A stretch of 64,000 nucleotides of DNA. Origin: Candidatus Moraniibacteriota bacterium. GTDB lineage: Bacteria; Patescibacteriota; Minisyncoccia; Moranbacterales; UBA1568. How positions within the stretch are numbered: the first letter of the stretch is position 1; every line of letters begins with the position of its first letter. This document shows, piece by piece, positions 11,567-54,712 of this stretch. A program made the position numbers and the translations under genes. The notes under the pieces are model-generated. The model was not told the DNA's origin, made no database searches, and saw only the letters and a program-made list of their open reading frames with translations. Location: contig JBPOHW010000005.1 in NCBI GenBank assembly GCA_052035095.1, forward strand, positions 30,269 to 94,268. Reading direction: 5' to 3'.

Positions 11567-11593
11567 TTCTCTCCCGAAGTGTTGTGCGAAAAA

Positions 11594-11622: not shown

Positions 11623-11648
11623 GTATAAAAATCAATCAGTCCCATCGA

Positions 11649-11768: not shown

Positions 11769-11772
11769 ACCA

Positions 11773-12951: not shown

Positions 12952-13062
12952 GTATTTTTGTTTTTTTCATTGTAGCATCAAACGCTCACCCTGAAAAAAC
13001 GAGCGCGATTCAAAACACTCCGTACTCATTCTTCAAAGAAAGTTTCAGCGACAAAATCCCGA

Positions 13063-14553: not shown

Positions 14554-14723
14554 GCCAACTGCCGACTGACAACTGACAACCGTCAGCAGCCAACCGGCAA
14601 CAGAAAACAAGAAACAAAAAATGTATGCCTCCACTCTAGCGAATTTTGAAACTTGTCGCAAGAAAACACCCCTCCAAAAAATGAAGGGGTGCTACAGGTC
14701 ACTTGCAAACCGATTTTCAGTCC

Positions 14724-15041: not shown

Positions 15042-15094
15042 GATACCTCACCTCGCTGGAAACCAAACAAAAAACAAAGAACAGAAGAATCCTT

Positions 15095-15550: not shown

Positions 15551-15657
15551 AGTGAAGCGCTACCTGATTATGTTTTGTTTCAAAGAAACGCAATGCTCCC
15601 TATGATACAGAGGTGGTTTGGGCTTGTCAATACTCGATTTGTCAAGAGAACCAGTCA

Positions 15658-17550
15658 TTATTTGAGAGCATCCTTTCCATGCCCTTCCGAAAAGTACCAT
15701 TCGTAAATATCATGCGTCACCGGAACGGCATTGTAGGTTTCGTCCTTGGATTGACCCTCGACCAAGACGAGGAGCGCGATTGACGGATGCTCATAGGGAG
15801 CAAACGAAGAAAACCATCCATGCGTTCTTTCCTCACTGCCAAACTGCGCCGTCCCCGTCTTCCCGGCAACCGGCACCGGGAGGCTGGAGAGTGACTGCGC
15901 CGTCCCTTCGGTCACGGTCATACGCATCCCTTCGCGAACCGCCCTTGCTATCGACGGCTCGACAATGCGATCCCGCACCATCTCCGATGAGAGTGTCTTC
16001 GTCTCGCCGGTATGAAAACGAACCTGCCCCACAATTCTCGGTTTCCACAAAACGCCGCCATTTGCAATGGCCGCCGTCGCGGAAGCCACCTGCATCGGCG
16101 TCGCAAGGACAAACCCCTGACCGATTGAGGCATGATACGTGTCCCCGATATACCAGCGTTCGCCCACTTTTTCCTTTTTCCATTCCGACGTCGGCAAAAA
16201 ACCAGCCCTCTCACCGGGAATATCAATGCCAGTTTTCGATCCGAAACCGAAACGAGCTTCATATTCGTTTATTTTTTCCATACCGAGTCCGCGAACCGCG
16301 CCGTACCCGCCACCGATACTGTAGAAATATACGTCGCTCGAAACGGCGATCGCGCGCCGAATATCCGTAAAACCATGCACTTTCCAATCGCCGAAGGAAA
16401 AGCTCCCAACGGTGATTCCGCCGCGACTCTCGATACTCGTCCGTTCCGTAACAACACCTTCCGCAAGCGCCGCTCCCGCAAGAAACGGCTTTATGGTGGA
16501 GCCAGGCGGGTATTCGCCGGCAATCACACGATTGAAAAGCGGAAGCGACGGATCATTGATAATCTCCGCGTAGCTCGAGGCGTCGATGCCTTTGGCGAAA
16601 AGATTGTTATCAAAAGACGGGATACTCACAAGCGAGAGGACGCTCCCGTCATTGGGGTCAATCGCGATCGCCGCCCCCGCCTTCAACCCTTTTGCCTCCA
16701 ATGCCGAACGGAGCGTATCGAATATTTTTTTCTGAAGTTCCGCGTCGATATTCAAAATGAGATCGTTCCCCGGCTCCGGTTCAAAAATCCCAAGCTCTTT
16801 CTTGACAACGCCTCGCGAATCCACCTCCACCCGATCAGCGCCTCGCTTCCCGCGCAGTACCGACTCATAACTCTTTTCCAACCCCTGTTTCCCAATCGAA
16901 TCAATCGGGAGATACTCGGGATGCTCTTCAAGCTCTTCCTTTCGGATCTTCCCTTCATATCCCAAGATGTGCGAGAAGATAAGGCTATCCTCATACTCTC
17001 GAACCGCCGATTTCTCAATCAAAATGCCGGGAAACTCCGCGGAACGGCTCAAAAAAAGAAGCGCTTCATCCTGTGAAAGCGACGTTTTCAAGACAATCGG
17101 AAGAGACAGTATATCGGAAGCGCATACCGAATGCTCCGATTCGATCGAATCGAAAGGGACAATCGCGTGAAGATTTGTAAGAAGCGCTCGACATTCGTCT
17201 TCGGATTTGGGAAGTCCCGCCGGCACGGCAACGAGCTCCATACTCGGAACATTGCGCACCAATTGTCGACCGTATCGATCGAAGATAAGACCGCGCGGCG
17301 CCGGAAGAAGCACGCTCCGCACGCTGTTTCGAACGGCAATCTCGCGATAATACTCCCCCTGAACCACATTCAAAAAGAAGACCCGCGCGCCAAACAAGAC
17401 CAAGACGACAACAAAAAGAAAGCGAAACCATGTCGCCCCGAAACGGTTGATCGGAAATTCAAGGCGCGCCGCGTCCTTTTCCGTCACCGTAAGCACCGCG
17501 TCGTCAATTTCCATCCCGCGATACTTCGTCCGATTGCCAAAGAAAGACAT
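15658..17550 (-). CDS. mrdA: Penicillin-binding protein 2 (class B PBP, elongation-type; MrdA-like)
   Basis: N-terminal TM anchor, and STIKP (SxxK), SxD and KTGTAQ transpeptidase motifs. It is the second class B PBP in the window; the other is ftsI. Confidence 0.8.
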   Translation of the reverse strand: MSFFGNRTKYRGMEIDDAVLTVTEKDAARLEFPINRFGATWFRFLFVVVLVLFGARVFFLNVVQGEYYREIAVRNSVRSVLLPAPRGLIFDRYGRQLVRNVPSMELVAVPAGLPKSEDECRALLTNLHAIVPFDSIESEHSVCASDILSLPIVLKTSLSQDEALLFLSRSAEFPGILIEKSAVREYEDSLIFSHILGYEGKIRKEELEEHPEYLPIDSIGKQGLEKSYESVLRGKRGADRVEVDSRGVVKKELGIFEPEPGNDLILNIDAELQKKIFDTLRSALEAKGLKAGAAIAIDPNDGSVLSLVSIPSFDNNLFAKGIDASSYAEIINDPSLPLFNRVIAGEYPPGSTIKPFLAGAALAEGVVTERTSIESRGGITVGSFSFGDWKVHGFTDIRRAIAVSSDVYFYSIGGGYGAVRGLGMEKINEYEARFGFGSKTGIDIPGERAGFLPTSEWKKEKVGERWYIGDTYHASIGQGFVLATPMQVASATAAIANGGVLWKPRIVGQVRFHTGETKTLSSEMVRDRIVEPSIARAVREGMRMTVTEGTAQSLSSLPVPVAGKTGTAQFGSEERTHGWFSSFAPYEHPSIALLVLVEGQSKDETYNAVPVTHDIYEWYFSEGHGKDALK

Positions 17551-21040: not shown

Positions 21041-22054
21041 TTATTTTTTCTCAAATCCGCCTATATTGGCAATTTCGGCGCGAATAGCCGGGTGCGGATC
21101 ATATCCCTCAAGAGAAAAATCTTCAAAGACGAAATCATCTATCTCTTTTCGCCCTGAATTCAATATCAAATTCGGAAATGGTCTTGGCTTTCGAGAAAGT
21201 TGCTCATGAACTTGATCAAAATGATTGCTATAAATATGGGCATCACCGATATTATGAACGAAATCTCCCACTTTCAATCCCGTTACTTGCGCCACCATTC
21301 GAAGAAGAAGTGAGTAACTTGCTATGTTAAACGGAAGGCCAAGAAACGTATCGGCACTCCTCTGATAAAGCCCCAAATTCAAAACTCCATCGCCCGTTAC
21401 GGCAAACTGAAACGTTGTATGACAAAATGGAGGCACTTCATTTGCGTTTCCAGGAGACGCCATTGCATAAATAAAATCCGGATTCCATGCCGACACAACA
21501 TACGACTTTCGAAAAGGCTTGTCCCGGAGTCCCTCAATTAACCATCCGAGTTGGTCTATCTTTCGTCCGTCACTTGCCGGCCATCGGCGCCACATCTTGC
21601 CATACGCCATAATAAGATCGCCCCATTCCTTTACAAACGGACTTTCTTCTGGTTCCAACTTTATCTTTTCAATAAACTCGTCCTGCTCCATATCGGGCAA
21701 GCTCCGATCACGACAAAGTTTGTGATATCGTTTCCATGCCCACTCATCCCAAATATGAACATCTCGATCAACGAGATACTTGATATTTGTATCTCCGCGC
21801 AAAAACCAAAGGAGCTCATGAAGAATGCCTCGAAAGAAAACTTTTTTTGTTGTTAATAGAGGAAAATATTCCCCGACATGAAACCGCATAGAATATCCGA
21901 ATATCGATCGAATAATTGGCGGTTTTTGCCCCTTTTTTCTGTACTGTTCAAAAATTTCCGGCGTGAAAAACACATCTTTATCCGTCCCCCCGTCAAGAAT
22001 ACTTTGCAAAAGATCAAGATACTGATACTCCGGATGTTTCTTTCGTGTTGCCAT
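21041..22054 (-). CDS. thyA: Thymidylate synthase ThyA (long-insert type)
   Basis: HELLWFLRGDTN, PPFCHTTFQFAV (catalytic Cys) and DAHIYSNH motifs. At 337 aa it is longer than E. coli ThyA because of an internal insertion. Confidence 0.85.
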   Translation of the reverse strand: MATRKKHPEYQYLDLLQSILDGGTDKDVFFTPEIFEQYRKKGQKPPIIRSIFGYSMRFHVGEYFPLLTTKKVFFRGILHELLWFLRGDTNIKYLVDRDVHIWDEWAWKRYHKLCRDRSLPDMEQDEFIEKIKLEPEESPFVKEWGDLIMAYGKMWRRWPASDGRKIDQLGWLIEGLRDKPFRKSYVVSAWNPDFIYAMASPGNANEVPPFCHTTFQFAVTGDGVLNLGLYQRSADTFLGLPFNIASYSLLLRMVAQVTGLKVGDFVHNIGDAHIYSNHFDQVHEQLSRKPRPFPNLILNSGRKEIDDFVFEDFSLEGYDPHPAIRAEIANIGGFEKK

Positions 22055-28696: not shown

Positions 28697-31056
28697 TTAC
28701 TTTTGCAGTTCCGCCATGTTTACCGATCGCTTGCTGATTTTGATCATTTCCTCGTCGTGTGAAACACAAATTATCGTAGTGTCCGGATATTTCTCGTTTA
28801 TCTCACTGATAATTTTCCTTACTTCGGTTGCAGCTTGCGAATCGAGGCTTGCCGTCGGTTCATCAAGCAACATGATCTTTGCCCCTTTAACCAAAGTGCG
28901 CGCTACGCCAATCCTTACCCTCTCACCTCCCGATAAATTTTTTACTTCTTCGTCGAGTCTGCCAATAAATTTTTCCAAATGCAAATCTTCCAATACTTTC
29001 TTTATTTTTTCATAGCTTATTTCTTCTTTCGACCACAGCAAAATATTTTCACGCAATGTCATTTCATCAAAAATTTGCGGATTTTGGTTGCAGTAAGACA
29101 TGACTGAATAGATCGATTTTTTGCCGTATTTTTTTATGTTGTCATTCTTAACTCCGCCTATTTCTATTTCACCGCCACCCGGCTTATATAGACCAACTAA
29201 ATTTCGGAGCAGTGTCGATTTTCCAATTCCAGATGCTCCCGATATAGCCAAGAATTCTCCCTGCTTAATATTCATGCTTATACCGCGCAAAATATTTTTA
29301 TAGCGAAGATTTTTTATAGAAATATCAAAATTTTCCAATTCGGAAATCGGTACGCGTTCCTTTTCTTTTTCACCTTCCGGCAAATCCAGTTTTTCGTATT
29401 TTCCAAAAATTTCGTCCATCCGTTGTATATCCTGAATATAACGAGAAAATCTATTGAAATAAAGACTTACCAATTCTTGAACCGGGTAATTTAGCATGCC
29501 AGAATAAGTGATATTTGACAAAATAGCTCCACCGGAAATCATGCCGACCGCTTGAAGCGCGCCACCTACGCCAGCCGCCACGACGGTTGAAACATCAAAA
29601 GGAATCCTCCTTATCAAATCCATCTTCGTTTCTTCGACAAATCTCCCCAACGAAAGAGTATCTATTCTGTCCATCTGCCTTTTTACATCGGCGGCAATGA
29701 TCGGCGTTTCAGACGAAGTTTTAATTTCTTCAAATCCACTCTTTATCGATCCGAGACGCGTCTCTATTTTTCCCCCTCTCGTCTTTCTTTTTCATACATC
29801 GGCCAGACTTCATTATTCTGTTTTTTCGCGACTCTATACATAACAGGCAGGCTTCCAGCGCCAATTGCACCAAGAACAGGATTTATTTTCATCAAAAATG
29901 CGAGAGACATGGCTATTCCCGCTAAAGTCGGAGCAAATTCTGAAAGAGTGTCTCGTAAAATTCCCTCTGTCGCGTTTTTGCCCCTTTCCAAAGTCGCATA
30001 AATTTCGCCCAATGGTTTTTCGTGTATAAATTCAAATTCTTGAAAAAACAACGAATTGGTTATCCGTTCGTTAATTTGATGATTAATTTCATTCATCACC
30101 TTAGCCAGTTCGATTTTACTCTTCGCATCAATAAGCACTGATACCTTGTTGAGTCCGAGAAATTCCAAAAACACGGCGACATTGAACCTATCTTGCACGA
30201 TTATGTCTTGAAATAATGACGGGGCGAAACTTTCCAAACCTTTTGACGCTAAATGTCCAAGAGAAATTTTTGCTATCGCTCCTTTTTTCTCACCCAACTC
30301 ATACTCGTTCCAAAGCCGCGTGATTGTTTCAACGAGAACTCTCGGCGAATAATTTTCATCCTCGCCTTTGTCAGATCGTATAAGATCTACTAAAATTTCA
30401 ACCTCAACCTTGTCCAATGGATATCGATTTTGTAGGTCTTTTACCAACTCGGCTTTTTGTTTTCGTTGTTCCTTTTCGTCGATCTCGCCGTCTTCATCAA
30501 TCATTTTGTCCTTGTAAAAATCAGCGATATCTTTTTCCAACGACTTTGTGTTCATCACGTTCCCGATTGAATCAAAAAGCAGCCAGCATTGAGCACGTAA
30601 TTCTTCAGTATCTTCTTCAGTAAGAGATGATTCTCTTTTGTTTCGTATCTCGCTGACTAGATTCTCAATCCAGTCTTCAATAGCGCAGGAAAACTCTTCA
30701 CTATTAACATTAACAAATTCTCTGTGCGGATGCTCTTCTGATTTTTTGGCTTTCTCGTTAAAACCCTTCAAGATTTGTTTGTATTCGGTCACCAGTTCTG
30801 GCGCGATGAGTTCGCTCAACAACTTCATTTTTTCTTGTTCCTCCAAGGTCGGTTTTTCAACAGAGATCTTCTCTTGGATTGATAAACGTAAAGACAACCA
30901 ATGATCCTTGAGCGTCATCGGTCTTCCCTCTGTTTCGTCATGTTCTTCAAGAGTAAGCGGTTCCGCTTTTGCAGATTCTTTCTCTCGCTCAATTTCTCCT
31001 TTGATTGGCCTAAAAAAATCACTTTCTTTCATAGTTGTGAAACATAAAACAACCAC
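28697..31056 (-). pseudogene. Atypical ABC exporter (N-terminal ~330-aa charged domain + partial TMD + NBD) interrupted by a frameshift at a G5A5 homopolymer run (~29765-29792)
   Basis: The downstream ORF has TMD helices 5-6 plus an NBD (Walker A ISGASGIGKST, signature LSGGERVRIG, Walker B IMLLDEPTASLD). The upstream ORF (29764..31056) ends in a TMD segment homologous to ABC-exporter ICL1/TM3-4. The downstream frame stays open back to 29792 and overlaps the upstream stop (29764-29766). A single-base indel in GAGGGGGAAAAA would fuse them. Confidence 0.5.
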
Positions 31057-34821: not shown

Positions 34822-36147
34822 TCACGGCGTGAGACGTTTGACGTCTCTCGGAAAGAGGACAGCCTGTTTGATGGTGGGAAGTCCCAAGAGTTGCTGAATG
34901 GTGCGCTCCGATCCCCAGCCCCACCCGCCGTGCGGCGGGCAACCATACCGAAAGGTGTCGAGATAATTCGAGAAATCCTCCGGATTCATCCCGCGCTTCT
35001 TGATCGACTCCACCATTTTTTTGTATTCATGAATACGCTGTCCGCCAGTCGCGAGTTCCAGCCCGCGAAAGAGGAGGTCGAAGCTTTCCGTAAAGTGCGG
35101 ATCGGCGCCCGGCAAAGTATAAAACGGCCGAATGGCGGTCGGATAATGCGTCAAGAAGACAAAATCCGATCCAAATTCGCGCTTCACATACTCGCAAATC
35201 ATCCGCTCGCCCTCGGGATCGATGTCGATTTCCCCGCCTTCCATTTTCTTCCCGAATTCTTTTTCAAGAATTTGAAGCGCTTCCGTCAGCTTCATGCGCG
35301 GGATAGCGACTCTTTTGGGAGCCTCGGCGCCCCACAATTCAAGCTCTTCTTTTCCTCGTTCGCCTATTTTTTCAAACACGTCAAAAATGATGCTTTCGAG
35401 CTCGTTCATCACGTCACCGACGCCTTCAATAAACGCCATCTCGGCATCAAGACTCACGTATTCGTTCACGTGGCGCGTCGTAAAGTGCGGCTCGGCGCGA
35501 AACACCGGTCCAATCTCGAAAACTCGCTCAAACACACTTGCCCCCGCCTCCTTATAAAATTGCGGACTCTGCGCGAGAAACGCATCGCGATCAAAATATT
35601 TGATCTTGAAAAAGTTGGCGCCGCCTTCGGTCGCGGCATTCACCACCTTTGGCGTCTTCACCTCGAGAAAACCGCGCGACCGAAGCGCGTCGGCATACGC
35701 GGATACCAGTATGCCATAAAGCCGAAAAATCGCCTGAACTTTTCGATTGCGGAGCGAAAAAATGCGATTGTTGAGAAGTGTATCAAGATGAAGTTCCTCA
35801 AGACCGCCCTCAGCTATTTCAAATGGGAGCGGACTTTCGGGAGCGGAAAGAATGATGAGTTCTTCAACTTCCACTTCGATACTCCCCAGGGTATCGGCGC
35901 GCTCGGCGCCACCCGGACGAGATTTCACCACACCGATCGCCTCGATGATACACTCATTCCGGCACTCGCGCGCCGCCTCATACGCCGCGCTATGATCGGG
36001 TATTACCACCAGTTGAACCGTACCGCTTCGATCGCGAACATCGAGAAATAAAATTTTCCCGTGGTCGCGACGCATATTCACCCATCCTTTCAGGCGAACC
36101 CGTTCCCCTTTCGCACGCAACGCTTCGACAATCAGTGTTCGTTCCAT
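34822..36147 (-). CDS. aspS: Aspartyl-tRNA synthetase, archaeal/eukaryal type (AspRS2-like; possibly non-discriminating)
   Basis: 441 aa with an N-terminal OB fold, FLEVKTPKVVNAATEGGANFFKIKYFDRDAFLAQSPQFYKE (the ATEGGA motif is typical of archaeal-type AspRS, versus SDCEGAGE in AsnRS), FRAE motif 2 and GGWGWGSER motif 3. Confidence 0.7.
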   Translation of the reverse strand: MERTLIVEALRAKGERVRLKGWVNMRRDHGKILFLDVRDRSGTVQLVVIPDHSAAYEAARECRNECIIEAIGVVKSRPGGAERADTLGSIEVEVEELIILSAPESPLPFEIAEGGLEELHLDTLLNNRIFSLRNRKVQAIFRLYGILVSAYADALRSRGFLEVKTPKVVNAATEGGANFFKIKYFDRDAFLAQSPQFYKEAGASVFERVFEIGPVFRAEPHFTTRHVNEYVSLDAEMAFIEGVGDVMNELESIIFDVFEKIGERGKEELELWGAEAPKRVAIPRMKLTEALQILEKEFGKKMEGGEIDIDPEGERMICEYVKREFGSDFVFLTHYPTAIRPFYTLPGADPHFTESFDLLFRGLELATGGQRIHEYKKMVESIKKRGMNPEDFSNYLDTFRYGCPPHGGWGWGSERTIQQLLGLPTIKQAVLFPRDVKRLTP

Positions 36148-37633: not shown

Positions 37634-37706
37634 GTCTCTGTAGCTCAGTGGATAGAGCGTCTGGTTCCGGTCCAGAAGGCCGCAGGTCCGATTCCTGCCA
37701 GGGACA
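37634..37706 (+). tRNA. tRNA-Arg (anticodon CCG)
   Basis: Manually folded: acceptor GTCTCTG/CAGGGAC (one G-U pair), D-arm GCTC-AGTGGATA-GAGC, anticodon stem TCTGG/CCAGA with loop UUCCGGU, variable AGGCC, T-arm GCAGG-TCCGATT-CCTGC, discriminator A. No CCA encoded. Confidence 0.85.
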
Positions 37707-37710
37707 CACA

Positions 37711-39407: not shown

Positions 39408-39493
39408 AAAAGAAATTTTTATTCCCTCCTCGGGGTCATTTTAACATAAAACAAGTATCCCTGCTCTAAAAGGCCAACTTCAAAGGAAAATAT

Positions 39494-40429
39494 CTACAAT
39501 AAGTAAACTCCAAAAGCAACAACTGCTATAGAACATATTTTAACACATAAACCGCGAAATTGATCTCGATATATTTTTTGTACAAACAGTGTCTGAAAAC
39601 GAAAAATCCACAAAAATACTATCAATAGAGCGCTAAACAACATCACAAAAGCCGGAATCAGGGTTTCCAAGACCGCAACAAAAGACGGTGAAGAGGAAAG
39701 GGAGAGCGCTCGTTGCGAACACAAAAATCCGAGAAGCGCCAGCCCTTCGCTTATCAAAAACACAAACCAATATCGTCGCGCCAGCTGAAACACTTTTGCA
39801 TTTCGTACTTTCACCGCCCACACAAGCGGCGCCACCAAAAATGCACCGAGTGAGAAAAGGAGATATCCGCTCCAAAATCCACCTTCTCCGACCAACTCAT
39901 ACGCGTGGGATTGAATTACCATACTTGCGGCAAGAGAGATATTCGCAAACAACATAGTCCCGGCGATAGACCAAAATCCTTCCGCGCGAATCGATGAGTC
40001 CATTGAAAGAAAAAATCCGCCGAGAAAAGCGACAAAAATTCCAACATACTGAATCCATTCAAGCCGTTCCCCAAGCGTGACCCATGAAAAAACCGGAACG
40101 AGGGGAAGTGAAAGCGTCCACAGTACCTGCGCCAGCGAGACATCGTTCTTTTGAAAGAGGGCTTTAAAATAAAAGTAGAAAGCCCCCATATAGAGGAAGC
40201 CCCCAAGAAGAAAAAGAACAAAAGGAAACATCGGAAGAAGCTGAAATTCCAAGATACCGAAAGGAACGGCAATCCATGGAACGATCTGAAAAAAACTCGA
40301 CAACAAAAGACCGTCAAGCGGTCCATCATAGATATCCTCAACAAAATACACGTCAATCAAATTGACAATCGCCCACAAGGCCGGCGCGCACAGCGCCAAG
40401 AGAAACCAATTATCCCAGAGAAAGTGCAT
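39494..40429 (-). CDS. Polytopic membrane protein, function unknown (first gene of AT-rich island)
   Basis: 311 aa with about 9 predicted TM helices and no diagnostic motif. Lower GC than the backbone. Confidence 0.4.
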   Translation of the reverse strand: MHFLWDNWFLLALCAPALWAIVNLIDVYFVEDIYDGPLDGLLLSSFFQIVPWIAVPFGILEFQLLPMFPFVLFLLGGFLYMGAFYFYFKALFQKNDVSLAQVLWTLSLPLVPVFSWVTLGERLEWIQYVGIFVAFLGGFFLSMDSSIRAEGFWSIAGTMLFANISLAASMVIQSHAYELVGEGGFWSGYLLFSLGAFLVAPLVWAVKVRNAKVFQLARRYWFVFLISEGLALLGFLCSQRALSLSSSPSFVAVLETLIPAFVMLFSALLIVFLWIFRFQTLFVQKIYRDQFRGLCVKICSIAVVAFGVYLL

Positions 40430-40486
40430 ATCGAAGGTAATCAGTAAAAAACAAAACTAAAACTATTTATAAAAATCAATTGTTTT

Positions 40487-40942
40487 TTACTTTTCCTGTA
40501 TGTTCAAGATTCTCTCTTGCACCCTATCGAGCTCCTCATCAGATACCTTTGGCCCTTCAACTGTTGTAATATAGCCAAGATATTCTGGATGAAATTCAAA
40601 GTGCTTGCTCCAGATATTCGTCTCATCCGCAAGATTTCCATGAAGCGGATACAGCTTTGCATGAACATAGGCAACGCCGGTACCCTCAAATACCATAGCA
40701 ACACGAGACACGCCAAGTGCTTTTTCAAGAATTTTTGCCACCGTTCTCGCCGCACCAAGCAAACCTTGATAGTCATTCTCCTTTAAGTCAAATACGTAGT
40801 TCCCAACATCACTCTTTGGAATCACGACAGTTACTCCAATGGTATTGGGAAATGGCGTCAAAAAAGCAAGGTAGTCATTATCTTCCCATACCTTCCACGA
40901 TTTCAATTCTCCAGAGAGAATTCTTTCAAAGAGAGTGCTCAT
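40487..40942 (-). CDS. HIT-superfamily-like protein with degenerate histidine triad
   Basis: The N-terminal FERILSGEL...WEDNDYLAFLTPFPNTIGVTVVIPK matches the HIT fold (IFCKII..E.P..V.ED....AF.DI.P.APGH.LVIPK). The HxHxHxx triad position reads VHAKLYP, with only one His retained. Confidence 0.45.
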   Translation of the reverse strand: MSTLFERILSGELKSWKVWEDNDYLAFLTPFPNTIGVTVVIPKSDVGNYVFDLKENDYQGLLGAARTVAKILEKALGVSRVAMVFEGTGVAYVHAKLYPLHGNLADETNIWSKHFEFHPEYLGYITTVEGPKVSDEELDRVQERILNIQEK

Positions 40943-40983
40943 AAACTCGATTAGCTCAATTCAGAAAGCGCTTTTTCCGCATG

Positions 40984-42393
40984 CTATTTCTTTCGCTTCT
41001 CAATCCAAACCTGTCGTAGCGTTTCATCGGATAACTCGCTCGGAGCGCCCATAAGCAAATCTTTTGCCTCGCCTGTTTTTGGAAATGCGATTACTTCACG
41101 AATACTTTCTTCACCAAGAATAGTAGAGATAAGCCGATCCATTCCAAGCCCCGTTCCAGCGTGCGGTGGAACCCCAAGAGAAAATGCACGAAGTATATGA
41201 CCAAATTTATTCTGTATTTCCTCTTCCCTAAGTCCGATCGACTCAAATATGGTTTTTTGTAGCCCTGCATCATGTATACGAACACTGCCAGAACTAATTT
41301 CATACCCATTCAGAACAAGATCAAACGCCGTGGAACGAACCGAGAGCGGATCGCTTTTTATTCGAGATATATCTTCGTCGAGCGGCATGGTAAATGGGTG
41401 ATGCGCGGATGAAATTCCAGTCTTCGAAGTGCTATCTTCTTCAAAAAGCGGAAACTCCGTCACCCAACAAAATGCCAACGTGTCACTATCTTTTTTCTCT
41501 CGCATATCCGGTTTGTCACACCCATAATTCTTCATAGAATCCGCATAGGTCATTTTTGGAAACGGCGTAGAAAGAATTTTCTTGTTCGGAAATATCTTCG
41601 AAACAAGCGCTATCATAGAATCCTCAACCATTTTCATCACATCACCCTCATCAACAAAAGACATCTCAATGTCAAATTGAGTAAATTCCGGCTGACGATC
41701 CTGTCGCTGATCCTCATCTCGAAAGCACCGTGCCACCTGAAAATATTTCCCCATACCGGAGACCATGAGAAGTTGTTTGAACTGTTGTGGAGATTGCGGA
41801 AGAACATAAAACTGTCCATGATGAATTCTCGAAGGAACGATAAATTCTCGAGCACCCTCCGGAGTTCCCTTAGTAAGGATAGGTGTCTCCACCTCACAAA
41901 ATCCATTCTCGCTGTAGTAATTCCGAAGAAAGAGCATTGTTTCATGGCGAGACCGGATATTTCTTTGCATTCGATCCGATCGGAGATCAAGATATCGGTG
42001 TTTCATGCGAAGAGACTCGTCTATCGCATTCGTGTCATCGTCAACGGAAAATGGAAGCGCTGTCGCAGGCGAAAAAATATGAAGAGTTTCAGCGACAAGT
42101 TCTCTGTCACCGAGAGGCTGATTTGGATTTATGAGATTTTTTTGTCGCTCAACGACGGTTCCGGAAACTTGTATGACCGACTCGAGGGAAATCTTCTTTA
42201 TTTGTTCAAATGTTTCTCCGGTACACACAACCTGAATTTTCCCCGAAGGGTCACGAAGATCACAAAAAGCAACCTTTCCGTGCAGTCGGAGGTTGTGTAC
42301 CCACCCAGAAAGAATAGTCTTTTTTCCGACACGTTCCCGACTCTCAGCTATAGAGCAATCATTCTTTCTATAGGTTTTCATAATGGTTTCCAT
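40984..42393 (-). CDS. aspS: Aspartyl-tRNA synthetase, bacterial type lacking the GAD insertion domain
   Basis: 469 aa with an N-terminal OB fold, RYLDLR, QSPQQFKQLLMVSG, FRDEDQRQDRQPEFTQFDIEMSF (motif 2), bacterial-specific LAFCWVTEFPLFEE and AHHPFTMP, GGSVRIHD and GLGMDRL (motif 3). There is no roughly 100-aa GAD domain. Its start overlaps the stop of the upstream fusion gene. Confidence 0.8.
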   Translation of the reverse strand: METIMKTYRKNDCSIAESRERVGKKTILSGWVHNLRLHGKVAFCDLRDPSGKIQVVCTGETFEQIKKISLESVIQVSGTVVERQKNLINPNQPLGDRELVAETLHIFSPATALPFSVDDDTNAIDESLRMKHRYLDLRSDRMQRNIRSRHETMLFLRNYYSENGFCEVETPILTKGTPEGAREFIVPSRIHHGQFYVLPQSPQQFKQLLMVSGMGKYFQVARCFRDEDQRQDRQPEFTQFDIEMSFVDEGDVMKMVEDSMIALVSKIFPNKKILSTPFPKMTYADSMKNYGCDKPDMREKKDSDTLAFCWVTEFPLFEEDSTSKTGISSAHHPFTMPLDEDISRIKSDPLSVRSTAFDLVLNGYEISSGSVRIHDAGLQKTIFESIGLREEEIQNKFGHILRAFSLGVPPHAGTGLGMDRLISTILGEESIREVIAFPKTGEAKDLLMGAPSELSDETLRQVWIEKRKK

Positions 42394-44381
42394 TAAGGAA
42401 TAATATGTGTCTGGCTTCTTGGAAATAGAACTACGTCTTCAACGGTATTATACCCAAGTAATTTCGCAACAACCCGATCAATTCCAAGACAAAAACCGCC
42501 GTGCGAAACCGGCGTCTTGAAGTAATCGAGATAAAACTGAAAGTTTTCAGGATTTACTCCTGACATCTTCATTCTTTCAACAATACGAGAAGCATCGGTT
42601 TCTCGTACGGCGCCAGAACAAATTTCCCAGCCCCTATAAATAATATCAAAGGACTCTGTATAGTGCTCGTCCACCTCTTTCGTATAAAACTTTTTCGTGA
42701 GATTCGGATAATGAACAATCGCAAAAATATCCCAGCTACGATTTTCTTTTAAGAAATTTGCCAATTCGTATTCCCTGCTATAACCAAGATCATCCCCGTA
42801 CGAATATTCAGTATCAACATGAGCTGTCACTATCTCAAATACCTCGTCATAACTTATGGATTGTATTTCCTTCGCAATAACATTTTCTTGCGCAATAAGT
42901 TGCCCTTCCAATAATCTCTCCGAGGAAAAATTCAGTATTTCTCCAGCAACAGCAAGTAGAGCATTGATTCCTTCATTTTTCTTCAGTTGCATTTCAACAT
43001 CAAGCCCCCATGCTTCTGATAAATGCCTTGCAGTAGGACTCGTCTCCTCACGCCAAAATGGTCCATACTCAAAAACGCGCCTCATCCCAGACAGAACAAG
43101 CATTTGCTTATACATCTGATTAGACTGTCGCAAAAAAAGTTTTCTTTCATACCATTGAACAGAGAACAATTCCTCACTTGCATTGTTTCTCGGTGGGTCA
43201 GTTGATATTGGTACTACATACGGAGTATGCACTTCCGTATAAACCTCCTTTTCTTGCAGATAATCTCGGAAGCCCTTTTCAAAAACGCTTCTCAAAAAAG
43301 CAACGTGCGCTAAATTTTTATTGAGCCTCTTCTTGCTCAATTCTAAGTTTAAGCCGACCTCCACACTTATCAACTCTTTTTCTATAGCACGATACACCTC
43401 ACCGACACGTTCTCTTATAATCTCATTTGCCTTTTCAATTTGAGCAACTCGATCCCTATATCGTTGAGCAGTCAGTTTTTTTATGGTCGCTATTGAATAG
43501 ATAGACGCGCTTTTGTTCAAAGATGCAAGCAAAATCGTATTCTGAGGGTTTCCAACATCGATAATTTTTGGTATATGGAACAACTTATTTATTTTCTCTG
43601 ACTCTTCATAAGAAAGAACATCCGAAAGACAGAAGAAAACGGCATCGTACTCGCCTATTTTATCGAGATACTCACTAAATTCGACTCTGGCTCTTGCCAC
43701 TCCGGTTTCAACCAATTTATTTGCTCGAGACTCTGTCCTATTTGTAACATCAATAGATTCAAAACCTTTTTCATGTAAAACATGTGCAATGAGGCTCCCC
43801 ATAGCTCCACATCCGACAATCAGAATGCACTGAGACTGATCGCCATTTACATTTTGAAGCAACTCAACCGCTTGTCGACCGACTGAAACGTTTCCAATCC
43901 CTATCATTGTTTGTTCTTTTACGGAAAGCGCTACTCTTTTGGCTGAACGAAAAAGAACCTCCATTACCGGACCAGAGGCTTTAAATTTTTTACTGCTCGT
44001 CAAAGCAAATCGAACCTGTCCAAGTACTTGACCATCCCCAATGGTCACGCTCTTTAATCCGGAAGACACTTGCAAGAGATGCTCGACACATTTGTATTCA
44101 CGGTAAAGGGCGATGTCAGATCCGCCGAAGCCATCTGGAGAGATACTAACTAATCTCCACGTTTTTACAATTTTTTCCAAATCAAAAACCCCCCAGACAA
44201 AAATCTCCGTGCAATTACATTTTTGCAAAATGACTACCTCCTCTACACAGGGGAGTTTCTTAAATTCACTATATCCCCGCGAAATATCTTTAATATTACA
44301 GGCATTGACGATATCCTGAGTGTTATTATTTAGACTTATTGAAATACAATAAAGGTCTCTTTTTTGCAAAGTTTTCCCCAT
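42393..44381 (-). CDS. Fusion protein: glutamyl-tRNA reductase (HemA/GluTR)-like N-terminal half + class IIb aminoacyl-tRNA-synthetase-like catalytic core (AspRS/AsnRS/AsnA-type, no anticodon-binding domain)
   Basis: N-half: VVILQKCNCTEIFVW (GluTR catalytic-Cys motif TCNRTELY, with Arg replaced by Cys), VEHLLQVSSGLKSVTIGDGQVLGQVRFAL (versus GluTR [23 protein letters not shown]), ILIVGCGAMGSLIAHVL...NRTESRANKLV (NADPH Rossmann domain, versus LLVGAGET...ANRTRERAQ) and KIIDVGNPQN (versus DIAVPRD). C-half: EVHTPYVV...RQSNQMYKQMLVLSG, YGPFWREETSPTARHLSEAWGLDVEM (motif 2), SFDIIYRGWEICSGAVRE and GGFCLGIDRVVAKLLG (motif 3). Confidence 0.7.
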   Translation of the reverse strand: MGKTLQKRDLYCISISLNNNTQDIVNACNIKDISRGYSEFKKLPCVEEVVILQKCNCTEIFVWGVFDLEKIVKTWRLVSISPDGFGGSDIALYREYKCVEHLLQVSSGLKSVTIGDGQVLGQVRFALTSSKKFKASGPVMEVLFRSAKRVALSVKEQTMIGIGNVSVGRQAVELLQNVNGDQSQCILIVGCGAMGSLIAHVLHEKGFESIDVTNRTESRANKLVETGVARARVEFSEYLDKIGEYDAVFFCLSDVLSYEESEKINKLFHIPKIIDVGNPQNTILLASLNKSASIYSIATIKKLTAQRYRDRVAQIEKANEIIRERVGEVYRAIEKELISVEVGLNLELSKKRLNKNLAHVAFLRSVFEKGFRDYLQEKEVYTEVHTPYVVPISTDPPRNNASEELFSVQWYERKLFLRQSNQMYKQMLVLSGMRRVFEYGPFWREETSPTARHLSEAWGLDVEMQLKKNEGINALLAVAGEILNFSSERLLEGQLIAQENVIAKEIQSISYDEVFEIVTAHVDTEYSYGDDLGYSREYELANFLKENRSWDIFAIVHYPNLTKKFYTKEVDEHYTESFDIIYRGWEICSGAVRETDASRIVERMKMSGVNPENFQFYLDYFKTPVSHGGFCLGIDRVVAKLLGYNTVEDVVLFPRSQTHIIP

Positions 44382-44551
44382 ACAACAAAAAAAATTCAGT
44401 AAGCAACCGACAAAAAGAAGTTATCAGGAAAGTAAACGAAAGACAAGTGCAGGCTTCTTCACTACGAAATTGCAAGACATCAGAACATCCATCCCCATCG
44501 TTTCAGCCGTTTGCTATCCTTTCTTTATAAATAGCTCCCTGATATAGGAAA

Positions 44552-45877
44552 TTAGGAAACCCATCCCCATTTTTGTAACAAAGGAAGCTCTTTTTCTGCA
44601 AATTGAACGCCGATATCTGTTCGGTAAAACATCTTCGGAACAATAATCTTTTCAACAATGCAATATACCTCTCCCCTTGCTTTTTCTATAGAATCTCCAA
44701 ATCCGGTAACGTAGAGTATAAACCCGTTGCTTCCGGAAATATAGTAATTCTTTCCCTCAGTTCCTCTATCCTTGGAAATTTCTTCAAAATGAACTCGACT
44801 TCGTTCCTCATGAGAAAGTGGGCAACTAAAGAAAACTCTCACACCTTTTGATGAATATATCGATGATATACCTTCATAGGGAAATGGTGGCGCCGCTACA
44901 GAGACAACTACGCCAAATCCGTGTTTATACTTCAAATCATACGATTTTCCATCCGCCACGGCACTCAAAAATTCCGTCCATGGGGAAAGATGGATTTCCG
45001 CTTGCAGCTGAGTGGAGGGACAACCAAGTCGCGAGGTAACCTCAAGCGGATACAGAGCCTTTTTATCAAGGATGCAATTTATGTCAATATCGCCTCTAAA
45101 ATCAATTTTCTGAAGATATGATTTCATCTTGGCAAGCGTCTGACAAAAAAGCTGGTTATTTTCATTATCGGTATACCACATCACCGTTCCCATTTCTCCG
45201 GTTTTCGGTCCGATACCATCGTTAAAAAGACTTTTGTGCTCAACATTGATTTCGATTGGTCCCACCCAATCCTTTCCATTAAAATAACGAGCAACCCCAA
45301 CCTCTATTCCCATCACCTTTTTCTGCAGGTCGATATCTTGAATTCCAACCTCATCATATTTTTTCAACACACTCAAAACATCCTCCCCATCATCAACTTT
45401 TCCAACATAATTAAGCGAACTTTGGTGACTATTCTGCTTTATCACCCACTGGCCCGGATGTTTTTTTAAAAATGCTATCGCCTTTTTCGGGCTCTCAAAA
45501 CGAAACGACGGGAGTATGGCAATCCCGCATTCCTCTAAAATTTTTTGTCCGTACTCGCGATTTTTTTCGAGACGATCTCCAAACGCGCTTCCGCCAAAAA
45601 CGCGGTAGCCTTCTTTTCGCAGGCGATCCTGTTCTCGACCAAACCCGACATCGTCAAAAACAATAAGCCCCTTCTTCCCCACCCATTCAAGCTCTTTTTT
45701 CCAGTCATTCGTCTTTTTGACCATACCATCGAGACATTCGCGCCGCTTCGGATCGCGAATATACATTTTCACGTCATTCCCCTCGCCCTTCAGGCGAACA
45801 CACAGATCCGCCCCAATTAATTCCCCCGAAACAAAGAGTATCCGCATAAAACAAAAAAGATAATTCCTCTCAATCAA
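44552..45877 (-). CDS. PurD-like ATP-grasp ligase (glycinamide-ribonucleotide-synthetase family fold)
   Basis: MRILFVSGELIG (PurD-type N-domain start), ATP-grasp core, GPKTGEMGTV (versus PurD GPNTGGMGA) and a C-terminal GFGDSIEKARGEVY (versus PurD GDTLEEAR..AY). The likely start is the internal MRILF Met. Confidence 0.6.
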   Translation of the reverse strand: MIERNYLFCFMRILFVSGELIGADLCVRLKGEGNDVKMYIRDPKRRECLDGMVKKTNDWKKELEWVGKKGLIVFDDVGFGREQDRLRKEGYRVFGGSAFGDRLEKNREYGQKILEECGIAILPSFRFESPKKAIAFLKKHPGQWVIKQNSHQSSLNYVGKVDDGEDVLSVLKKYDEVGIQDIDLQKKVMGIEVGVARYFNGKDWVGPIEINVEHKSLFNDGIGPKTGEMGTVMWYTDNENNQLFCQTLAKMKSYLQKIDFRGDIDINCILDKKALYPLEVTSRLGCPSTQLQAEIHLSPWTEFLSAVADGKSYDLKYKHGFGVVVSVAAPPFPYEGISSIYSSKGVRVFFSCPLSHEERSRVHFEEISKDRGTEGKNYYISGSNGFILYVTGFGDSIEKARGEVYCIVEKIIVPKMFYRTDIGVQFAEKELPLLQKWGWVS

Positions 45878-46099
45878 ACATCAAAATCAAACTCAAAATA
45901 TAGTTTCTAAAGTAAACTTGAATTTATACCATAAAATGATTTACGCGTCAATATTAAAAGTCAAAGAAAACGGACAAAAATGTCCGCTTGAAAAGAAACT
46001 CCATATTTTATGCTCGAAAAATACCCTTTCAATGGGGGAAAATGGGGTTTTCATATCGGAAAATACATCCGGAAAAACATCAACGATGGTCGGAGCTCT

Positions 46100-51870: not shown

Positions 51871-52223
51871 AATTTCCTTCCAATTCAAAATAAAAAGAAG
51901 CCCCCTCAAAAGCTCCTTTACGGTAGTATAAACCCAAAGAAAAGGCAATCTGGCATTATTGGAGTCTATAACTAAACCCGTGCCCAAAAAAAACAACCAT
52001 CTATGCCCTATACGAAGTCAAAACATTGAGTCCTGCCTCCCTCAAAAAAATACTCCTCGTTTTGGAGGATATAGAACTCTCGAGCGAACTCACAGTGCCA
52101 TACATATGAGATACTTAAAAAGTCGCAAAAAAAGGGCAACTTTTCAACAGTGCCAGGGCTATAGGACGAAATCAGAATATATTTGTCTACTGCCATAGTA
52201 CCACAAACCAACAGAATGAGCGC

Positions 52224-52252
52224 TTGACAGGCTTATTTTCCCCGTATACACT
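52224..52252 (+). promoter_or_regulatory. Candidate sigma70-type promoter for the M23 peptidase gene (TTGACA-N17-TACACT)
   Basis: TTGACAggcttattttccccgtaTACACT lies about 100 bp upstream of the ATG at 52355. An AGAGGA Shine-Dalgarno sits 9 bp before the start. Confidence 0.4.
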
Positions 52253-52354
52253 CGAAACCGTACCTTAACAAACCGAGAACGCGCCGAAAAGGTCACTCAA
52301 AATGTGCGGGTACATGCGTTTTTTTTGCCAACCACCCTCGAAGAGGATCATTTC

Positions 52355-53677
52355 ATGAAACGCTTCACAGTGATTGCAACATGCCTCTCTGTTTACATAA
52401 GTCTCCCTGTAGAAACATTTGCATTCAATGGTCCGAATATCCCAAGGGAGGTGCCCTTTACGGAAAATGATGTGACGTACACGTCGTATATCCAAACCTG
52501 GCACCCATGGTACAACCAGAGCTATATCTGCTATTTCCCCGCTAATCTCGACCCTGATCAGATGCCTGTTATCGCGAACTATAATCAGGGTCCTCCATAT
52601 CAGCATGCGTGGATCATACTCAATCCCGCCTCTTCTTCCCAAGCCTGGGATAGTACCGCCTATCATAGTAACGCCTTGTGTTATTGGCGTTATGGCTATA
52701 ACTGGCTCACCCCATTCGTTCCAACGCAGGTTGTCAATCCGGCGACATACACATGGTTTGATTGGCACTACTCGGGACCTGCCGGATACGATATCCGTGA
52801 AGACCTGATTCGAGTATACGGAGGCGTGGATCTCAAGGTGAACTTCTCCTACAACTGGGATGGGCAGTTCAATCTGCCGAACCTCTCATCTGGGGATTAT
52901 GTTTTGCAGAGTGATCCCGTTGCCACACCACTCAGTTTCCCGCTTAGCGGTTATACGGCGTATACGGCTTCAGTGTCATCAGTGATGGATCATTCAATGA
53001 CGACTCCGTATACGAAAGATGGGACAGTGTCAGCCTTCAATGGTGAAGAAGGAAATGTCGATAATGGATGCTGGTGCTATTCGACGAGTTCTGCTTGTAA
53101 CTCAAGTAATTACACGAGTTGTTTCGCTGCTGGGTTTAAAAACTTAGAAGAAACCGGTTTCCTAAGTGGCGTCATTGCTTATGATGACCAGTATCTCTAC
53201 TACGATGGTCACCCTGGATATGACTATCCCGCTACTTTGGGAACGGATATTCATGCTCCAGCCGACGGCACTCTTTGTGTTGCTACCACTCATACAGCAC
53301 AACGAAACCCGGCGAATGTATGGCGCGATGAATCTCATTGTCCATTGCCATCGGTAGTGACCACAAGATGGCTGGATTCCGATGGGTATAACACTTTCTA
53401 CATCTTCCATGAAGGGTTGCACGTCAATGGGTCTACAAATGACTACATGACGGTCTTCCTTCACAGCAATGATCTGGAAAGTACAGTTCGAGGTAATATT
53501 CAGCAATACGGATACACTCAAGTTTCAAGGAACCAGCATATTGCTGAAGTGGGTGATGTAGGTGCCCCTGGCGCATACCATGTACATCTCGAGGTGTACA
53601 AGAAAAATGGCGAGAACTGGGATCGCGTCGATCCCTATGGCGACGGAACCAACAACATTCTGTGGGAGCGGAATTAA
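52355..53677 (+). CDS. Secreted M23-family metallopeptidase (lysostaphin/LytM-like) with large N-terminal Tyr/Trp-rich domain
   Basis: Signal peptide (MKRFTVIATCLSVYISLPVETFA). C-terminal M23 motifs YDGHPGYDYPA (HxxxD) and AYHVHLEVY (HxH). In a low-GC stretch on the opposite strand from the gene train. Confidence 0.75.
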   Translation: MKRFTVIATCLSVYISLPVETFAFNGPNIPREVPFTENDVTYTSYIQTWHPWYNQSYICYFPANLDPDQMPVIANYNQGPPYQHAWIILNPASSSQAWDSTAYHSNALCYWRYGYNWLTPFVPTQVVNPATYTWFDWHYSGPAGYDIREDLIRVYGGVDLKVNFSYNWDGQFNLPNLSSGDYVLQSDPVATPLSFPLSGYTAYTASVSSVMDHSMTTPYTKDGTVSAFNGEEGNVDNGCWCYSTSSACNSSNYTSCFAAGFKNLEETGFLSGVIAYDDQYLYYDGHPGYDYPATLGTDIHAPADGTLCVATTHTAQRNPANVWRDESHCPLPSVVTTRWLDSDGYNTFYIFHEGLHVNGSTNDYMTVFLHSNDLESTVRGNIQQYGYTQVSRNQHIAEVGDVGAPGAYHVHLEVYKKNGENWDRVDPYGDGTNNILWERN

Positions 53678-53712
53678 CTTCCCGTCTAAACGGCAACGTC
53701 CGTAAACTAAAA

Positions 53713-53747
53713 CCCCTGTCAGGAAATCTGGCAGGGGTTTTTATTTT
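53713..53747. terminator. Bidirectional rho-independent terminator between convergent genes
   Basis: CCCCTGTCAG-GAAAT-CTGGCAGGGG followed by TTTTTATTTT. Confidence 0.65.
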
Positions 53748-53770
53748 GAGATAACTTTAAACCTATGCAA

Positions 53771-54652
53771 TCAGTGACCTGAAGAGAGTGCAAATGTTTG
53801 TACAAGTTCTTTTAAATTTTCAAAAGAGGCGCGTATTTTTTCAGCAGTCTTACCGGTTCGATACCACGCGATAATACCACACGCCTTATCCACATTGTAA
53901 GCATTTCCACCGCGACATTCTGGGGTATTGACATATCCTCGCAACTCAATTTCTTCTGGAGTATCGGCATAGGGAACAAAGGCTGCACCAATCCAAACAA
54001 GTTTATCTTTATATCGAGCTGTATATGTTGGACCCTCTAATGAGGTATTTAGGCTATTAAATAAAGAAGGATCAGATATAAACTTTACACCTGATTTGTT
54101 GACAACCAAAACATTATCATTTTGAATTTTAGGTTGTATGGTTGAGATTGTTACAGAATCTCCTTTAAAGTTGCAAACCTTGCTAGGATTATTTGGGATG
54201 TTTAAATCCAATAATTTAATTTCCAAATTAATTGGTGCGCTAGAGAATTTAAGGACAACATTATATAATCCCCATTGATATTTTTTCGTTAAATTAATCA
54301 TCATCGGAAGAGGAACTTCACAAGGAGGGAGGCTAATGCTATTTCTGTTGCCATTTTCAACTACAACAGCTCCCCAGTCAGCCGGATAGTCAAACGATAA
54401 TCCTAGATCTTTATTTTGATATGTTTTCCAACTTTCAATCGGTTCAGCAACAACAGGGGTGTTTTTTTCACTCGAATCTATAATGGGCGGTGCCGAATTT
54501 TCTTTCGTCCGTGGCGTATTTTGAACACCAGCTCTATCAATGAGTCTTCCACATTGATAGCTCACCACAAGAGCAACTCCCAAAAACAGAACTACAGCCA
54601 TACCAATCCACAAAACTTTCTTTTGAGTTTTCTCCATAAGGCATATTTTCAA
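53771..54652 (-). CDS. Membrane-anchored hypothetical protein (low-GC)
   Basis: N-terminal TM helix (VLWIGMAVVLFLGVALVV), then a roughly 250-aa Asn/Ser-rich extracytoplasmic region. No known motif. Confidence 0.4.
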   Translation of the reverse strand: MKICLMEKTQKKVLWIGMAVVLFLGVALVVSYQCGRLIDRAGVQNTPRTKENSAPPIIDSSEKNTPVVAEPIESWKTYQNKDLGLSFDYPADWGAVVVENGNRNSISLPPCEVPLPMMINLTKKYQWGLYNVVLKFSSAPINLEIKLLDLNIPNNPSKVCNFKGDSVTISTIQPKIQNDNVLVVNKSGVKFISDPSLFNSLNTSLEGPTYTARYKDKLVWIGAAFVPYADTPEEIELRGYVNTPECRGGNAYNVDKACGIIAWYRTGKTAEKIRASFENLKELVQTFALSSGH

Positions 54653-54712
54653 CGAATGATTACACTGGGGATTATTGCAAATATCTTCAAGATTGTAAAA
54701 CTTTTTTTTGAC

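Follow-up and report, generated by a model that had tools for sequence, protein, structure and literature searches.

The window analysed here is a stretch of 64,000 nucleotides from a Candidatus Moraniibacteriota bacterium (GenBank assembly GCA_052035095.1, contig JBPOHW010000005.1, positions 30,269 to 94,268 of the forward strand; coordinates below are those of the window). It encodes a protein of 662 amino acids (aa) (42393-44381, minus strand) in which a domain resembling glutamyl-tRNA reductase (GluTR) is fused to the catalytic core of an aspartyl-tRNA synthetase (AspRS). This GluTR-like::AspRS-core architecture is rare and undescribed. We propose, with somewhat less than even confidence, that the fusion is an aspartyl-(tRNA) reductase, which would convert activated aspartate to aspartate semialdehyde via a thioester on Cys55, with tRNA(Asp) as a swinging acyl carrier. 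The gene lies in a low-GC region that is compositionally foreign and partly swapped between strains, and the unit conserved among relatives is the fusion plus an AspRS, not the five genes that an earlier note on this DNA had taken together.

The fusion was recognized by the Pfam families GlutR_N (2e-21), Shikimate_DH (8e-14) and tRNA-synt_2 (5e-51). With NCBIfam models it scored below the cutoff for both hemA (TIGR01035, 155 bits, cutoff 209.55) and archaeal AspRS (NF003483, 238 bits, cutoff 353), and no curated family model covers it. The AlphaFold2 model (pLDDT 83.8) matched AspRS structures 3nel/1b8a (E 8e-24) and the GluTR structure 1gpj (E 5e-18) in Foldseek. Residue conservation was assessed in an alignment of 13 fusion-family members, 28-33% identical to the window protein, together with true GluTRs.

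The GluTR-type catalytic domain comprises aa 1-160 (43902-44381, minus strand). Here C55 (codon 44217-44219, motif QKCNCTE) and N56 are invariant in the fusions and in the true GluTRs P0014, P0017 and P0018. The Arg of the GluTR motif TCNR, which is reported to bind the gamma-carboxylate of glutamate in the M. kandleri structure, is replaced by Cys in the window's clade and by Ala in other clades; the Thr of this motif gives way to a Lys that is nearly invariant. The segment GLKSVTIGDGQVLGQ is the counterpart of GLDSxxLGExQILGQ in GluTR; its GL(K/H)S brings in a Lys or His that is new relative to GluTR, and the G(D/E)xQ motif (GDxQVxxQ in the fusions) is conserved with true GluTRs. The loss of the Arg and the gain of the Lys/His in the reductase half would fit a shorter acidic substrate. 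In the following NAD(P)H-binding Rossmann domain (aa 180-295, 43497-43844, minus strand), which matches Shikimate_DH and other NAD-binding Pfam families, G190 and G192 of GxGxxG, N214-R215 and D275 are invariant in fusions and GluTRs. A long 'spinal' helix (aa 297-378, 43248-43493, minus strand; helices H297-352 and H355-378 in the AlphaFold2 model) links the reductase to the synthetase core, at the position where GluTR runs on into its dimerisation domain. PF00745 (GlutR_dimer) had no match in the fusion and is present in the true GluTRs P0014 and P0017.

The remainder of the protein (aa 380-662, 42396-43244, minus strand) is the catalytic core of a class IIb aminoacyl-tRNA synthetase (aaRS), with motifs 1-3 and the aspartate-binding residues of AspRS. 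Aligned with the T. kodakarensis AspRS (3nel/1b8a), it reads QSNQMYKQ (QSPQLYKQ in AspRS), FWREE..RHLSEAWGLDVE, EICSGAVRE and HGGFCLGIDR. Invariant throughout the fusion family are the motif 2 Arg, the motif 3 Arg and the Mg/ATP-binding Glu residues, as well as the residues that hold the aspartate side chain, namely the Lys of QSxQxYKQ, the Asp of LDVE and the Arg of SGAxRE. Two features are specific to the family: motif 1 is followed by a five-residue insertion with conserved STDPPR, and motif 3 contains a Cys. The core is nearest to archaeal AspRS (232 bits, versus 140 for AsnRS and 71 for archaeal AsnA) and 31% identical to the archaeal-type AspRS of the same genome; with 101 bits to asparagine synthetase A (NF005052, cutoff 368) it is not a member of that family. 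The OB-fold anticodon-binding domain PF01336 had no match in the fusion, whose alignment begins at position 135 of 438 in NF003483 and, in solved AspRS chains, at residues 131-132 by profile search or 139 with the single sequence.

Two kinds of irregular homologue were seen. One, in locus L006 (9647-11638) and in L031, has an in-frame TAA after codon 87; the other, in L019 (7639-9647) and L020, is split into a reductase open reading frame (ORF) of 383 aa and a synthetase-core ORF of 274 aa. These may be pseudogenes, sequencing errors or true two-gene versions. For L006, recoding of the stop codon (code 25) was rejected, the in-frame stop being TAA.

A word search of 5.8 billion proteins placed the fusion in 12 clusters, and 1.84 billion 50% clusters contained about 26 representatives of full length and about 6 of nearly full length, besides fragments and some stand-alone halves. 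It occurred at 14 loci among 185,579 species genomes and at 21 metagenome loci. The comparison that follows covers 32 distinct fusion loci (numbered with the prefix L), with the window and reference proteins mapped onto all fetched loci. The relatives are mostly metagenome-assembled genomes (MAGs) of Patescibacteria, also called the candidate phyla radiation (CPR), including Kaiserbacteria, Azambacteria, Parcubacteria and Saccharibacteria, and the fusion is nearly confined to Patescibacteria. A full-text literature search returned no description of a GluTR-like::AspRS-core fusion or of CPR aaRS paralogues relevant to it.

An AspRS of the CPR kind adjoins the fusion in 26 of the 32 loci, in at least three gene orders, and a GAD-type AspRS in L004. 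The orders found are AspRS-SDR-fusion (SDR, short-chain dehydrogenase/reductase), fusion-AspRS with a convergent SDR-Amidohydro_2 pair, FeADH-fusion-AspRS-Amidohydro_2 (Fe-ADH, iron-dependent alcohol dehydrogenase) and PurD-like-fusion-AspRS. The YdfG-like SDR (199 bits to NF007829) is present in 21 loci and is replaced by the Fe-ADH in L006 and L031; at least 22 loci have an adjacent NAD(P)H alcohol/aldehyde oxidoreductase from one or the other of these two unrelated families. Amidohydro_2 is found in 9 of the 32, and no clade but the window's own has PurD-like and EamA genes with the fusion.

In the window, the partner is a bacterial-type AspRS without the GAD insertion (40984-42393, minus strand; 469 aa, or 465 from the second ATG), which scored 602 bits to NF001750 (cutoff 443); the match comes in two parts, with the insertion left out. 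The TAA stop of the fusion overlaps the ATG start of this gene (TAATG), and the fusion is predicted to be translationally coupled to it. The GAD-less enzyme is the standard form in Patescibacteria, since more than 100 AspRSs of about 460 aa with 52-57% identity were found in their MAGs. A paralogue specific to a fusion module was considered and rejected, the enzyme being of this standard form and kept in a sister strain that lacks the fusion. Stand-alone AspRS/AsnA-like cores without an anticodon domain were also seen near some of the fusion genes (L004 12237-13034, L011 4512-5303, L042 6806-7906); those of L004 and L011 are 63% identical to each other and 38-40% to the fusion core.

From these features we infer the following course for the reaction. 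Aspartate would be activated with ATP at an AspRS-type site and loaded onto tRNA(Asp) as an ester, by the neighbouring full AspRS, by the fused core or by both. Cys55 of the GluTR-like domain would then attack this ester, yielding an acyl-thioester as glutamyl-tRNA reductase does, and NADPH would reduce the thioester to aspartate semialdehyde. The alpha (1-) semialdehyde, 3-amino-4-oxobutanoate, would be the likeliest product because both halves derive from enzymes that act on the alpha-carboxyl. In most other lineages the adjacent YdfG-type SDR or Fe-ADH would probably reduce the aldehyde and the Amidohydro_2 enzyme process the product; in the window, where these partners are absent, the genes that come next encode a histidine triad (HIT) protein, perhaps an aminoacyl-adenylate hydrolase, and a drug/metabolite transporter (DMT)-type permease. 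No enzyme other than GluTR is known to reduce an aminoacyl-tRNA. The broader proposal, which we hold more tentatively, is that the fusion is a second natural aminoacyl-tRNA reductase, with a built-in synthetase core, serving a tRNA-dependent CPR route from aspartate to a C4 amino-aldehyde or amino-alcohol on an accessory cassette exchanged between strains.

Several points weigh against this reading. The fused core lacks an anticodon-binding domain and may not charge tRNA by itself; if the adjacent AspRS supplies the Asp-tRNA, a second and apparently active adenylation site is left unexplained. The geometry between the domains is uncertain in the model (pTM 0.56), and the choice of alpha over beta regiochemistry is drawn from similarity to known enzymes. 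Homologues of the SDR and Amidohydro_2, and likewise of Ddl and the Fe-ADH, are absent from the 64-kb window. No AspRS lies near the fusion in five to six loci (L001, L009, L016 and L040; L049 is cut by a contig end), and the linkage in the others could partly reflect shared locus ancestry within clades, because AspRS is a housekeeping gene that is retained in the fusion-less sister strain (L029). Finally, a scan of 31 fusion-bearing loci (33 loci with the fusion-less L027 and L029) revealed no tRNA gene that consistently accompanies the fusion, and a dedicated tRNA for the fusion was dropped from consideration for this reason. The only tRNAs in the window are tRNA-Arg(CCG) and tRNA-Ser, and no Rfam family was detected in the low-GC island.

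The main rival reading, which we consider unlikely though serious, dispenses with tRNA: the core would form aspartyl-AMP and hand the acyl group directly to a thiol of the protein, that of Cys55 or of a different conserved Cys, for reduction with NADPH, following the logic of carboxylic acid reductases and Lys2 without a carrier domain. The STDPPR insertion lies in the loop after motif 1, which in AspRS gates access of the acceptor, and, together with the conserved Cys of motif 3 and the lack of a linked tRNA gene, is in keeping with such a reaction. The missing anticodon-binding domain likewise recalls AsnA/AS-AR and the amino acid:carrier-protein ligases (PMC5370406). The reaction is also chemically plausible, since canonical AspRS can aminoacylate CoA, pantetheine and Cys thiols with Asp (PMC5370406). 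However, the two active sites lie in separate domains with a helix of about 80 residues between them, so that a swinging carrier seems to be needed, and the strong linkage to a complete AspRS would go unexplained. Moreover, GluTR homologues are not known to act on anything but aminoacyl-tRNA.

A further alternative, which we regard as improbable, is that the synthetase-like half is mainly structural, a stand-in for the lost GluTR dimerisation domain and perhaps a docking site for tRNA, in what would simply be a divergent reductase of a tRNA charged by a different enzyme, possibly still Glu-tRNA. The core sits exactly where that domain would be, class II cores dimerise via motif 1, which is conserved here, and a complete AspRS is adjacent. 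However, the residues with which the core binds ATP and Asp do not vary among family members of 28-33% identity to the window protein, which argues for retained catalysis; the glutamate-binding Arg of GluTR is lost; and no heme-pathway genes were found in the 64-kb window or the 32 related loci, nor any GSA-aminomutase gene nearby.

If an aspartyl-tRNA reductase is indeed at hand, an aspartate-retuned GluTR paralogue with an AspRS core would extend tRNA-dependent metabolism beyond translation, heme and cell-wall synthesis and lipid aminoacylation. Aspartate 1-semialdehyde is one candidate product, from which derivatives of 3-amino-4-hydroxybutanoate or 4-amino-3-oxobutanoate could arise; were the beta-carboxyl activated, the enzyme would open a route to aspartate-4-semialdehyde and homoserine independent of aspartokinase and Asd. 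A tRNA-independent enzyme would be an amino-acid reductase built from parts of the translation machinery. The fusion is almost confined to the Patescibacteria, whose reduced metabolism is poorly understood.

Base composition was examined along the window. The segment 39408-45900 has a GC content of 0.417 against 0.500 across the remaining window, which is 4.6 standard deviations (SD) under the other 6.5-kb segments (mean 0.500, SD 0.018); the lowest non-overlapping segment elsewhere reaches 0.462. Sliding GC falls from about 0.50-0.55 to 0.35-0.45 over roughly 38.65-45.55 kb. The tract begins at about 38,650, within the 5' membrane part of a histidine kinase gene, and ends at about 45,550, within the PurD-like gene, the first 300 bp of which have a GC of 0.50. 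The five genes from EamA to PurD-like have GC contents at third codon positions (GC3) of.455 (EamA),.408 (HIT),.389 (AspRS),.354 (fusion) and.410 (PurD-like), lower than the backbone median of.566 (n=40; Mann-Whitney p=4e-4). Their synonymous-codon distance is raised as well (p=0.03), and the tetranucleotide distance peaks over the fusion gene at 42-45 kb with 182, the maximum of the window, versus a typical 75-125. The drop against the flanks that the earlier note had read by eye is therefore real and is seen in sliding-window GC, tetranucleotides and codon usage alike, but the backbone, at about 50% GC, is not GC-rich as it had been called, and the tract does not run from just after the kinase gene to the end of the ATP-grasp gene. 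Smaller low-GC patches lie at 21-22 kb, 28.7-31 kb and 53.8-54.7 kb.

The region was compared with L029, a fusion-less sister-strain locus on a 234-kb JGI contig from what is virtually the same species. The archaeal-type AspRS of L029 is 100% identical to that of the window, LepA, Trx, YjbQ, MltG and the histidine kinase are 94-98% identical, and the two DNAs are collinear at 92-98% identity by blastn and sliding identity, with three exceptions. The first is the segment from 42393 to about 45550 (GC 0.399), which contains the fusion and the 3' three-quarters of the PurD-like gene and is replaced in L029 by another cassette of 6.3 kb. The right breakpoint of this exchange is the AspRS start; the left one, at about 45,550, lies within the PurD-like gene, which is 97-100% identical to its L029 counterpart up to this point and about 60% identical beyond it. 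The L029 cassette consists of a divergent 3' part of PurD-like, an HD hydrolase, a methyltransferase, an ORF weakly similar to the AlaRS core, an LD-carboxypeptidase, an AsnRS/AsnA-like core and Ddl. In it (11318-17214) the AlaRS-core-like ORF has 388 aa and the AsnRS/AsnA-like core 377 aa without an anticodon domain, a further combination of aaRS-core paralogues with cell-wall enzymes. The second exception is a 0.55-kb insert carrying the HIT gene (40430-40985), a separate indel missing from L029, L023 and L007. The third is an unrelated insert of 2.8 kb (51,950-54,712), not present in L029 and apparently also strain-specific, with an M23-peptidase-like ORF (52304-53677, plus strand) and a gene with no family match (53771-54652, minus strand) whose GC3 of 0.28 is the lowest in the window. 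AspRS (98% identity) and EamA (90%) are common to the window and L029.

At the same slot L027 carries PurD-like (86%)-Ddl-orf-Fmt-like, without the fusion, the short AspRS or EamA. Cassettes in the slots of relatives have GC3 values of.34-.48 versus.54-.64 in their backbones. The fusion+AspRS pair in L006, a 33%-GC genome, is of native composition, so an origin of the pair in lower-GC Patescibacteria would fit. Taken together, the low-GC tract is a slot for cassettes, prone to recombination, that lies between the conserved PurD-like gene and the histidine kinase. No integrase or transposase ORF and no flanking repeats were found at the island, and neither edge lies at a tRNA gene, the tRNA-Arg(CCG) at 37634-37707, between the kinase and glycosyltransferase genes, being off the island edges; insertion at this tRNA or by a mobile element was rejected accordingly. 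The tRNA is a backbone feature rather than an insertion site, because L007 and L027 also have a tRNA-Arg(CCG) just beyond the kinase gene, where it falls within the called glycosyltransferase gene or at its start. The exchange is most simply explained by homologous recombination, since the breakpoints fall inside conserved genes. A 34-aa remnant in L007 (3692-3793), 56% identical to the PurD-like C-terminus and located between AspRS and EamA at the position of the window's HIT gene, may be the scar of a past rearrangement of the slot. Because the slot is strain-variable and lies beside cell-wall genes, the fusion may be the sign of an accessory trait in which co-existing strains differ.

The earlier note had interpreted the five genes as one horizontally acquired module for small-molecule or cell-wall amino-acid modification by adenylate- or tRNA-dependent chemistry. 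Much of its description holds: all five genes are called on the minus strand with small gaps, Pfam and NCBIfam agree with its labels (membrane protein, HIT-like, AspRS, reductase-aaRS fusion, PurD-like ATP-grasp), and a shared aminoacyl-adenylate chemistry is supported for the fusion, AspRS and HIT. The composition is foreign and part of the region is exchanged between strains. In addition to the low GC3 and shared strand of all five, the order PurD-like-fusion-AspRS(-EamA) recurs in the window's clade (L023, L024, L026), and the surrounding locus and the alternative cassettes of relatives (Ddl, LdcA, Fmt-like) are rich in cell-wall genes. Nevertheless, a single acquired unit of five genes is not supported and is improbable: in the 32 fusion loci the block never recurs outside the window's own clade, the PurD-like, AspRS and EamA genes stand at the same site in fusion-less strains, PurD-like and AspRS are ubiquitous in Patescibacteria, and HIT is a separate indel.

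The PurD-like ATP-grasp protein (44552-45847, minus strand; 431 aa from the true start) has a GARS_C match, a GARS_A match below the cutoff and no GARS_N match; with 95 bits to TIGR00877 (cutoff 288) it is not a PurD member. Its homologues number 2033 matches, more than 110 of them at 53-67% identity and nearly all from Patescibacteria, most of which are not known to have de novo purine synthesis. The gene holds the same position in the fusion-less L027 and L029, and the similarity of its alleles does not track the presence of the fusion, because the window protein is 86% identical to that of the fusion-less L027 versus 79% to that of the fusion-bearing L024. As a resident of fusion-less loci that belongs to a Patescibacteria family of about 2000 members, it was rejected as a member of a fusion module. 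The EamA/DMT permease (39494-40429, minus strand; 311 aa, Pfam EamA 2e-8) is 90% identical to that of the fusion-less L029 and only 30% to that of the fusion-bearing L007; it is resident in the slot and has no specific tie to the fusion.

The HIT-family protein (40487-40942, minus strand; 151 aa, Pfam HIT 9.7e-5) is matched by the HIT proteins 3p0t and 7mqw with the motifs aligned. Its triad is degenerate (YVHAK): instead of HxHxHxx, as in HLHVHVF of 3p0t and 7mqw, the window reads YVHAKLY and L038 HVHIKLY, and the window protein keeps the central His alone. The same subfamily (41% identity, HVHIK) adjoins a distant fusion in L038 (4154-4591) and in a near-identical 4.3-kb contig. In this fusion-linked subfamily (HxHxK) the third triad His is replaced by Lys, and the members have a common C-terminal extension. 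Hint enzymes hydrolyse aminoacyl-AMP made by aaRSs, and the island protein may hydrolyse stray aspartyl-adenylate.

That the low GC instead reflects a local mutational or expression bias in ordinary native genes is very improbable, for although the homologous slots of relatives are low in GC whatever genes they hold, AspRS and EamA are at backbone-level identity in the sister strain, and integrase, flanking repeat and tRNA insertion site are all lacking, the segment 42393-45550 is replaced and the HIT gene inserted within a backbone otherwise 92-98% identical, the fusion+AspRS pair is native in composition in the 33%-GC L006, and tetranucleotide usage is deviant too.

The wider window is a cell-envelope neighbourhood, with MraZ, MraW, two PBP2-type transpeptidases, a Mur ligase, an L,D-transpeptidase, LytR, MreB/C, MltG, MurJ and glycosyltransferases. 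A second AspRS, of the archaeal non-discriminating type (34822-36147, minus strand; 441 aa, NF003483 509 bits, cutoff 353; GC3 0.58), adjoins MreB in the conserved backbone. The occurrence of a bacterial and an archaeal-type non-discriminating AspRS in one genome is known from Thermus and Deinococcus. Two AspRS types in one genome are also touched on in PMC4206432. Elsewhere in the window, the gene for thymidylate synthase ThyA (21041-22054), which adjoins a dCTP deaminase gene, has a GC3 of 0.38, far under the backbone, and a gene pair at 28697-31056 (GC3 0.39-0.40), encoding an ABC-transporter ATPase and a 430-aa protein without a Pfam or NCBIfam match, is a tetranucleotide outlier.

The item of interest is the fusion in its partnership with AspRS, SDR and amidohydrolase, a putative variant of aminoacyl-tRNA reductase and aaRS-paralogue chemistry. 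With GluTR (HemA, EC 1.2.1.70; PDB 1gpj, 4n7r) the fusion shares the Cys-Asn nucleophile motif, GxxSxxxG(E/D)xQ(I/V)xxQ, the NADPH Rossmann domain and the long helix, and it matches 1gpj with 130 bits in the profile search and over 379 columns in Foldseek. Unlike GluTR, it has no PF00745 domain and a score below the family cutoff, the Arg and Thr of TCNR are replaced, an aaRS core is fused to it and there is no tetrapyrrole context. The archaeal/eukaryotic-type AspRS (3nel, 1b8a, 1n9w) is the best match of the core in sequence and fold, at 29-31% identity, with the class IIb motifs 1-3 and the ATP, Mg and Asp residues in common; the fusion differs from it in lacking the N-terminal OB domain, in the STDPPR insertion, in QSNQ for QSPQ, in the motif 3 Cys and in a score of 238 bits against a cutoff of 353.

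Archaeal AS-AR (1nnh, 3p8t) and AsnA offer another parallel, an AspRS/AsnRS-derived core without an anticodon-binding domain that acts on aspartate without necessarily charging tRNA, but their similarity to the fusion is far weaker (71 vs 232 bits) and AsnA has no reductase domain. AsnA activates the beta-carboxyl of aspartate and transfers it to ammonia (PMC5370406). In LysX, a LysRS fused to MprF, and in VlmL/VlmA, an aaRS is fused to or located beside an enzyme that uses its aminoacyl-tRNA outside translation, as is proposed for the fusion; the consumer is a lipid aminoacyl transferase in the former and a hydroxylamine seryl transferase in the latter, and neither system includes a reduction step. 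The LysX synthetase keeps its anticodon-binding domain. VlmL/VlmA pairs a dedicated SerRS with a tRNA-dependent enzyme (PMC5370406). Carboxylic acid reductases and Lys2 (A-T-R) are built from unrelated folds, namely ANL adenylation, phosphopantetheinyl carrier and SDR-type R domains, and have the carrier domain that the fusion lacks, but they share with its proposed reaction the course of ATP-dependent adenylation of a carboxylate, formation of a thioester and NADPH reduction to the aldehyde.

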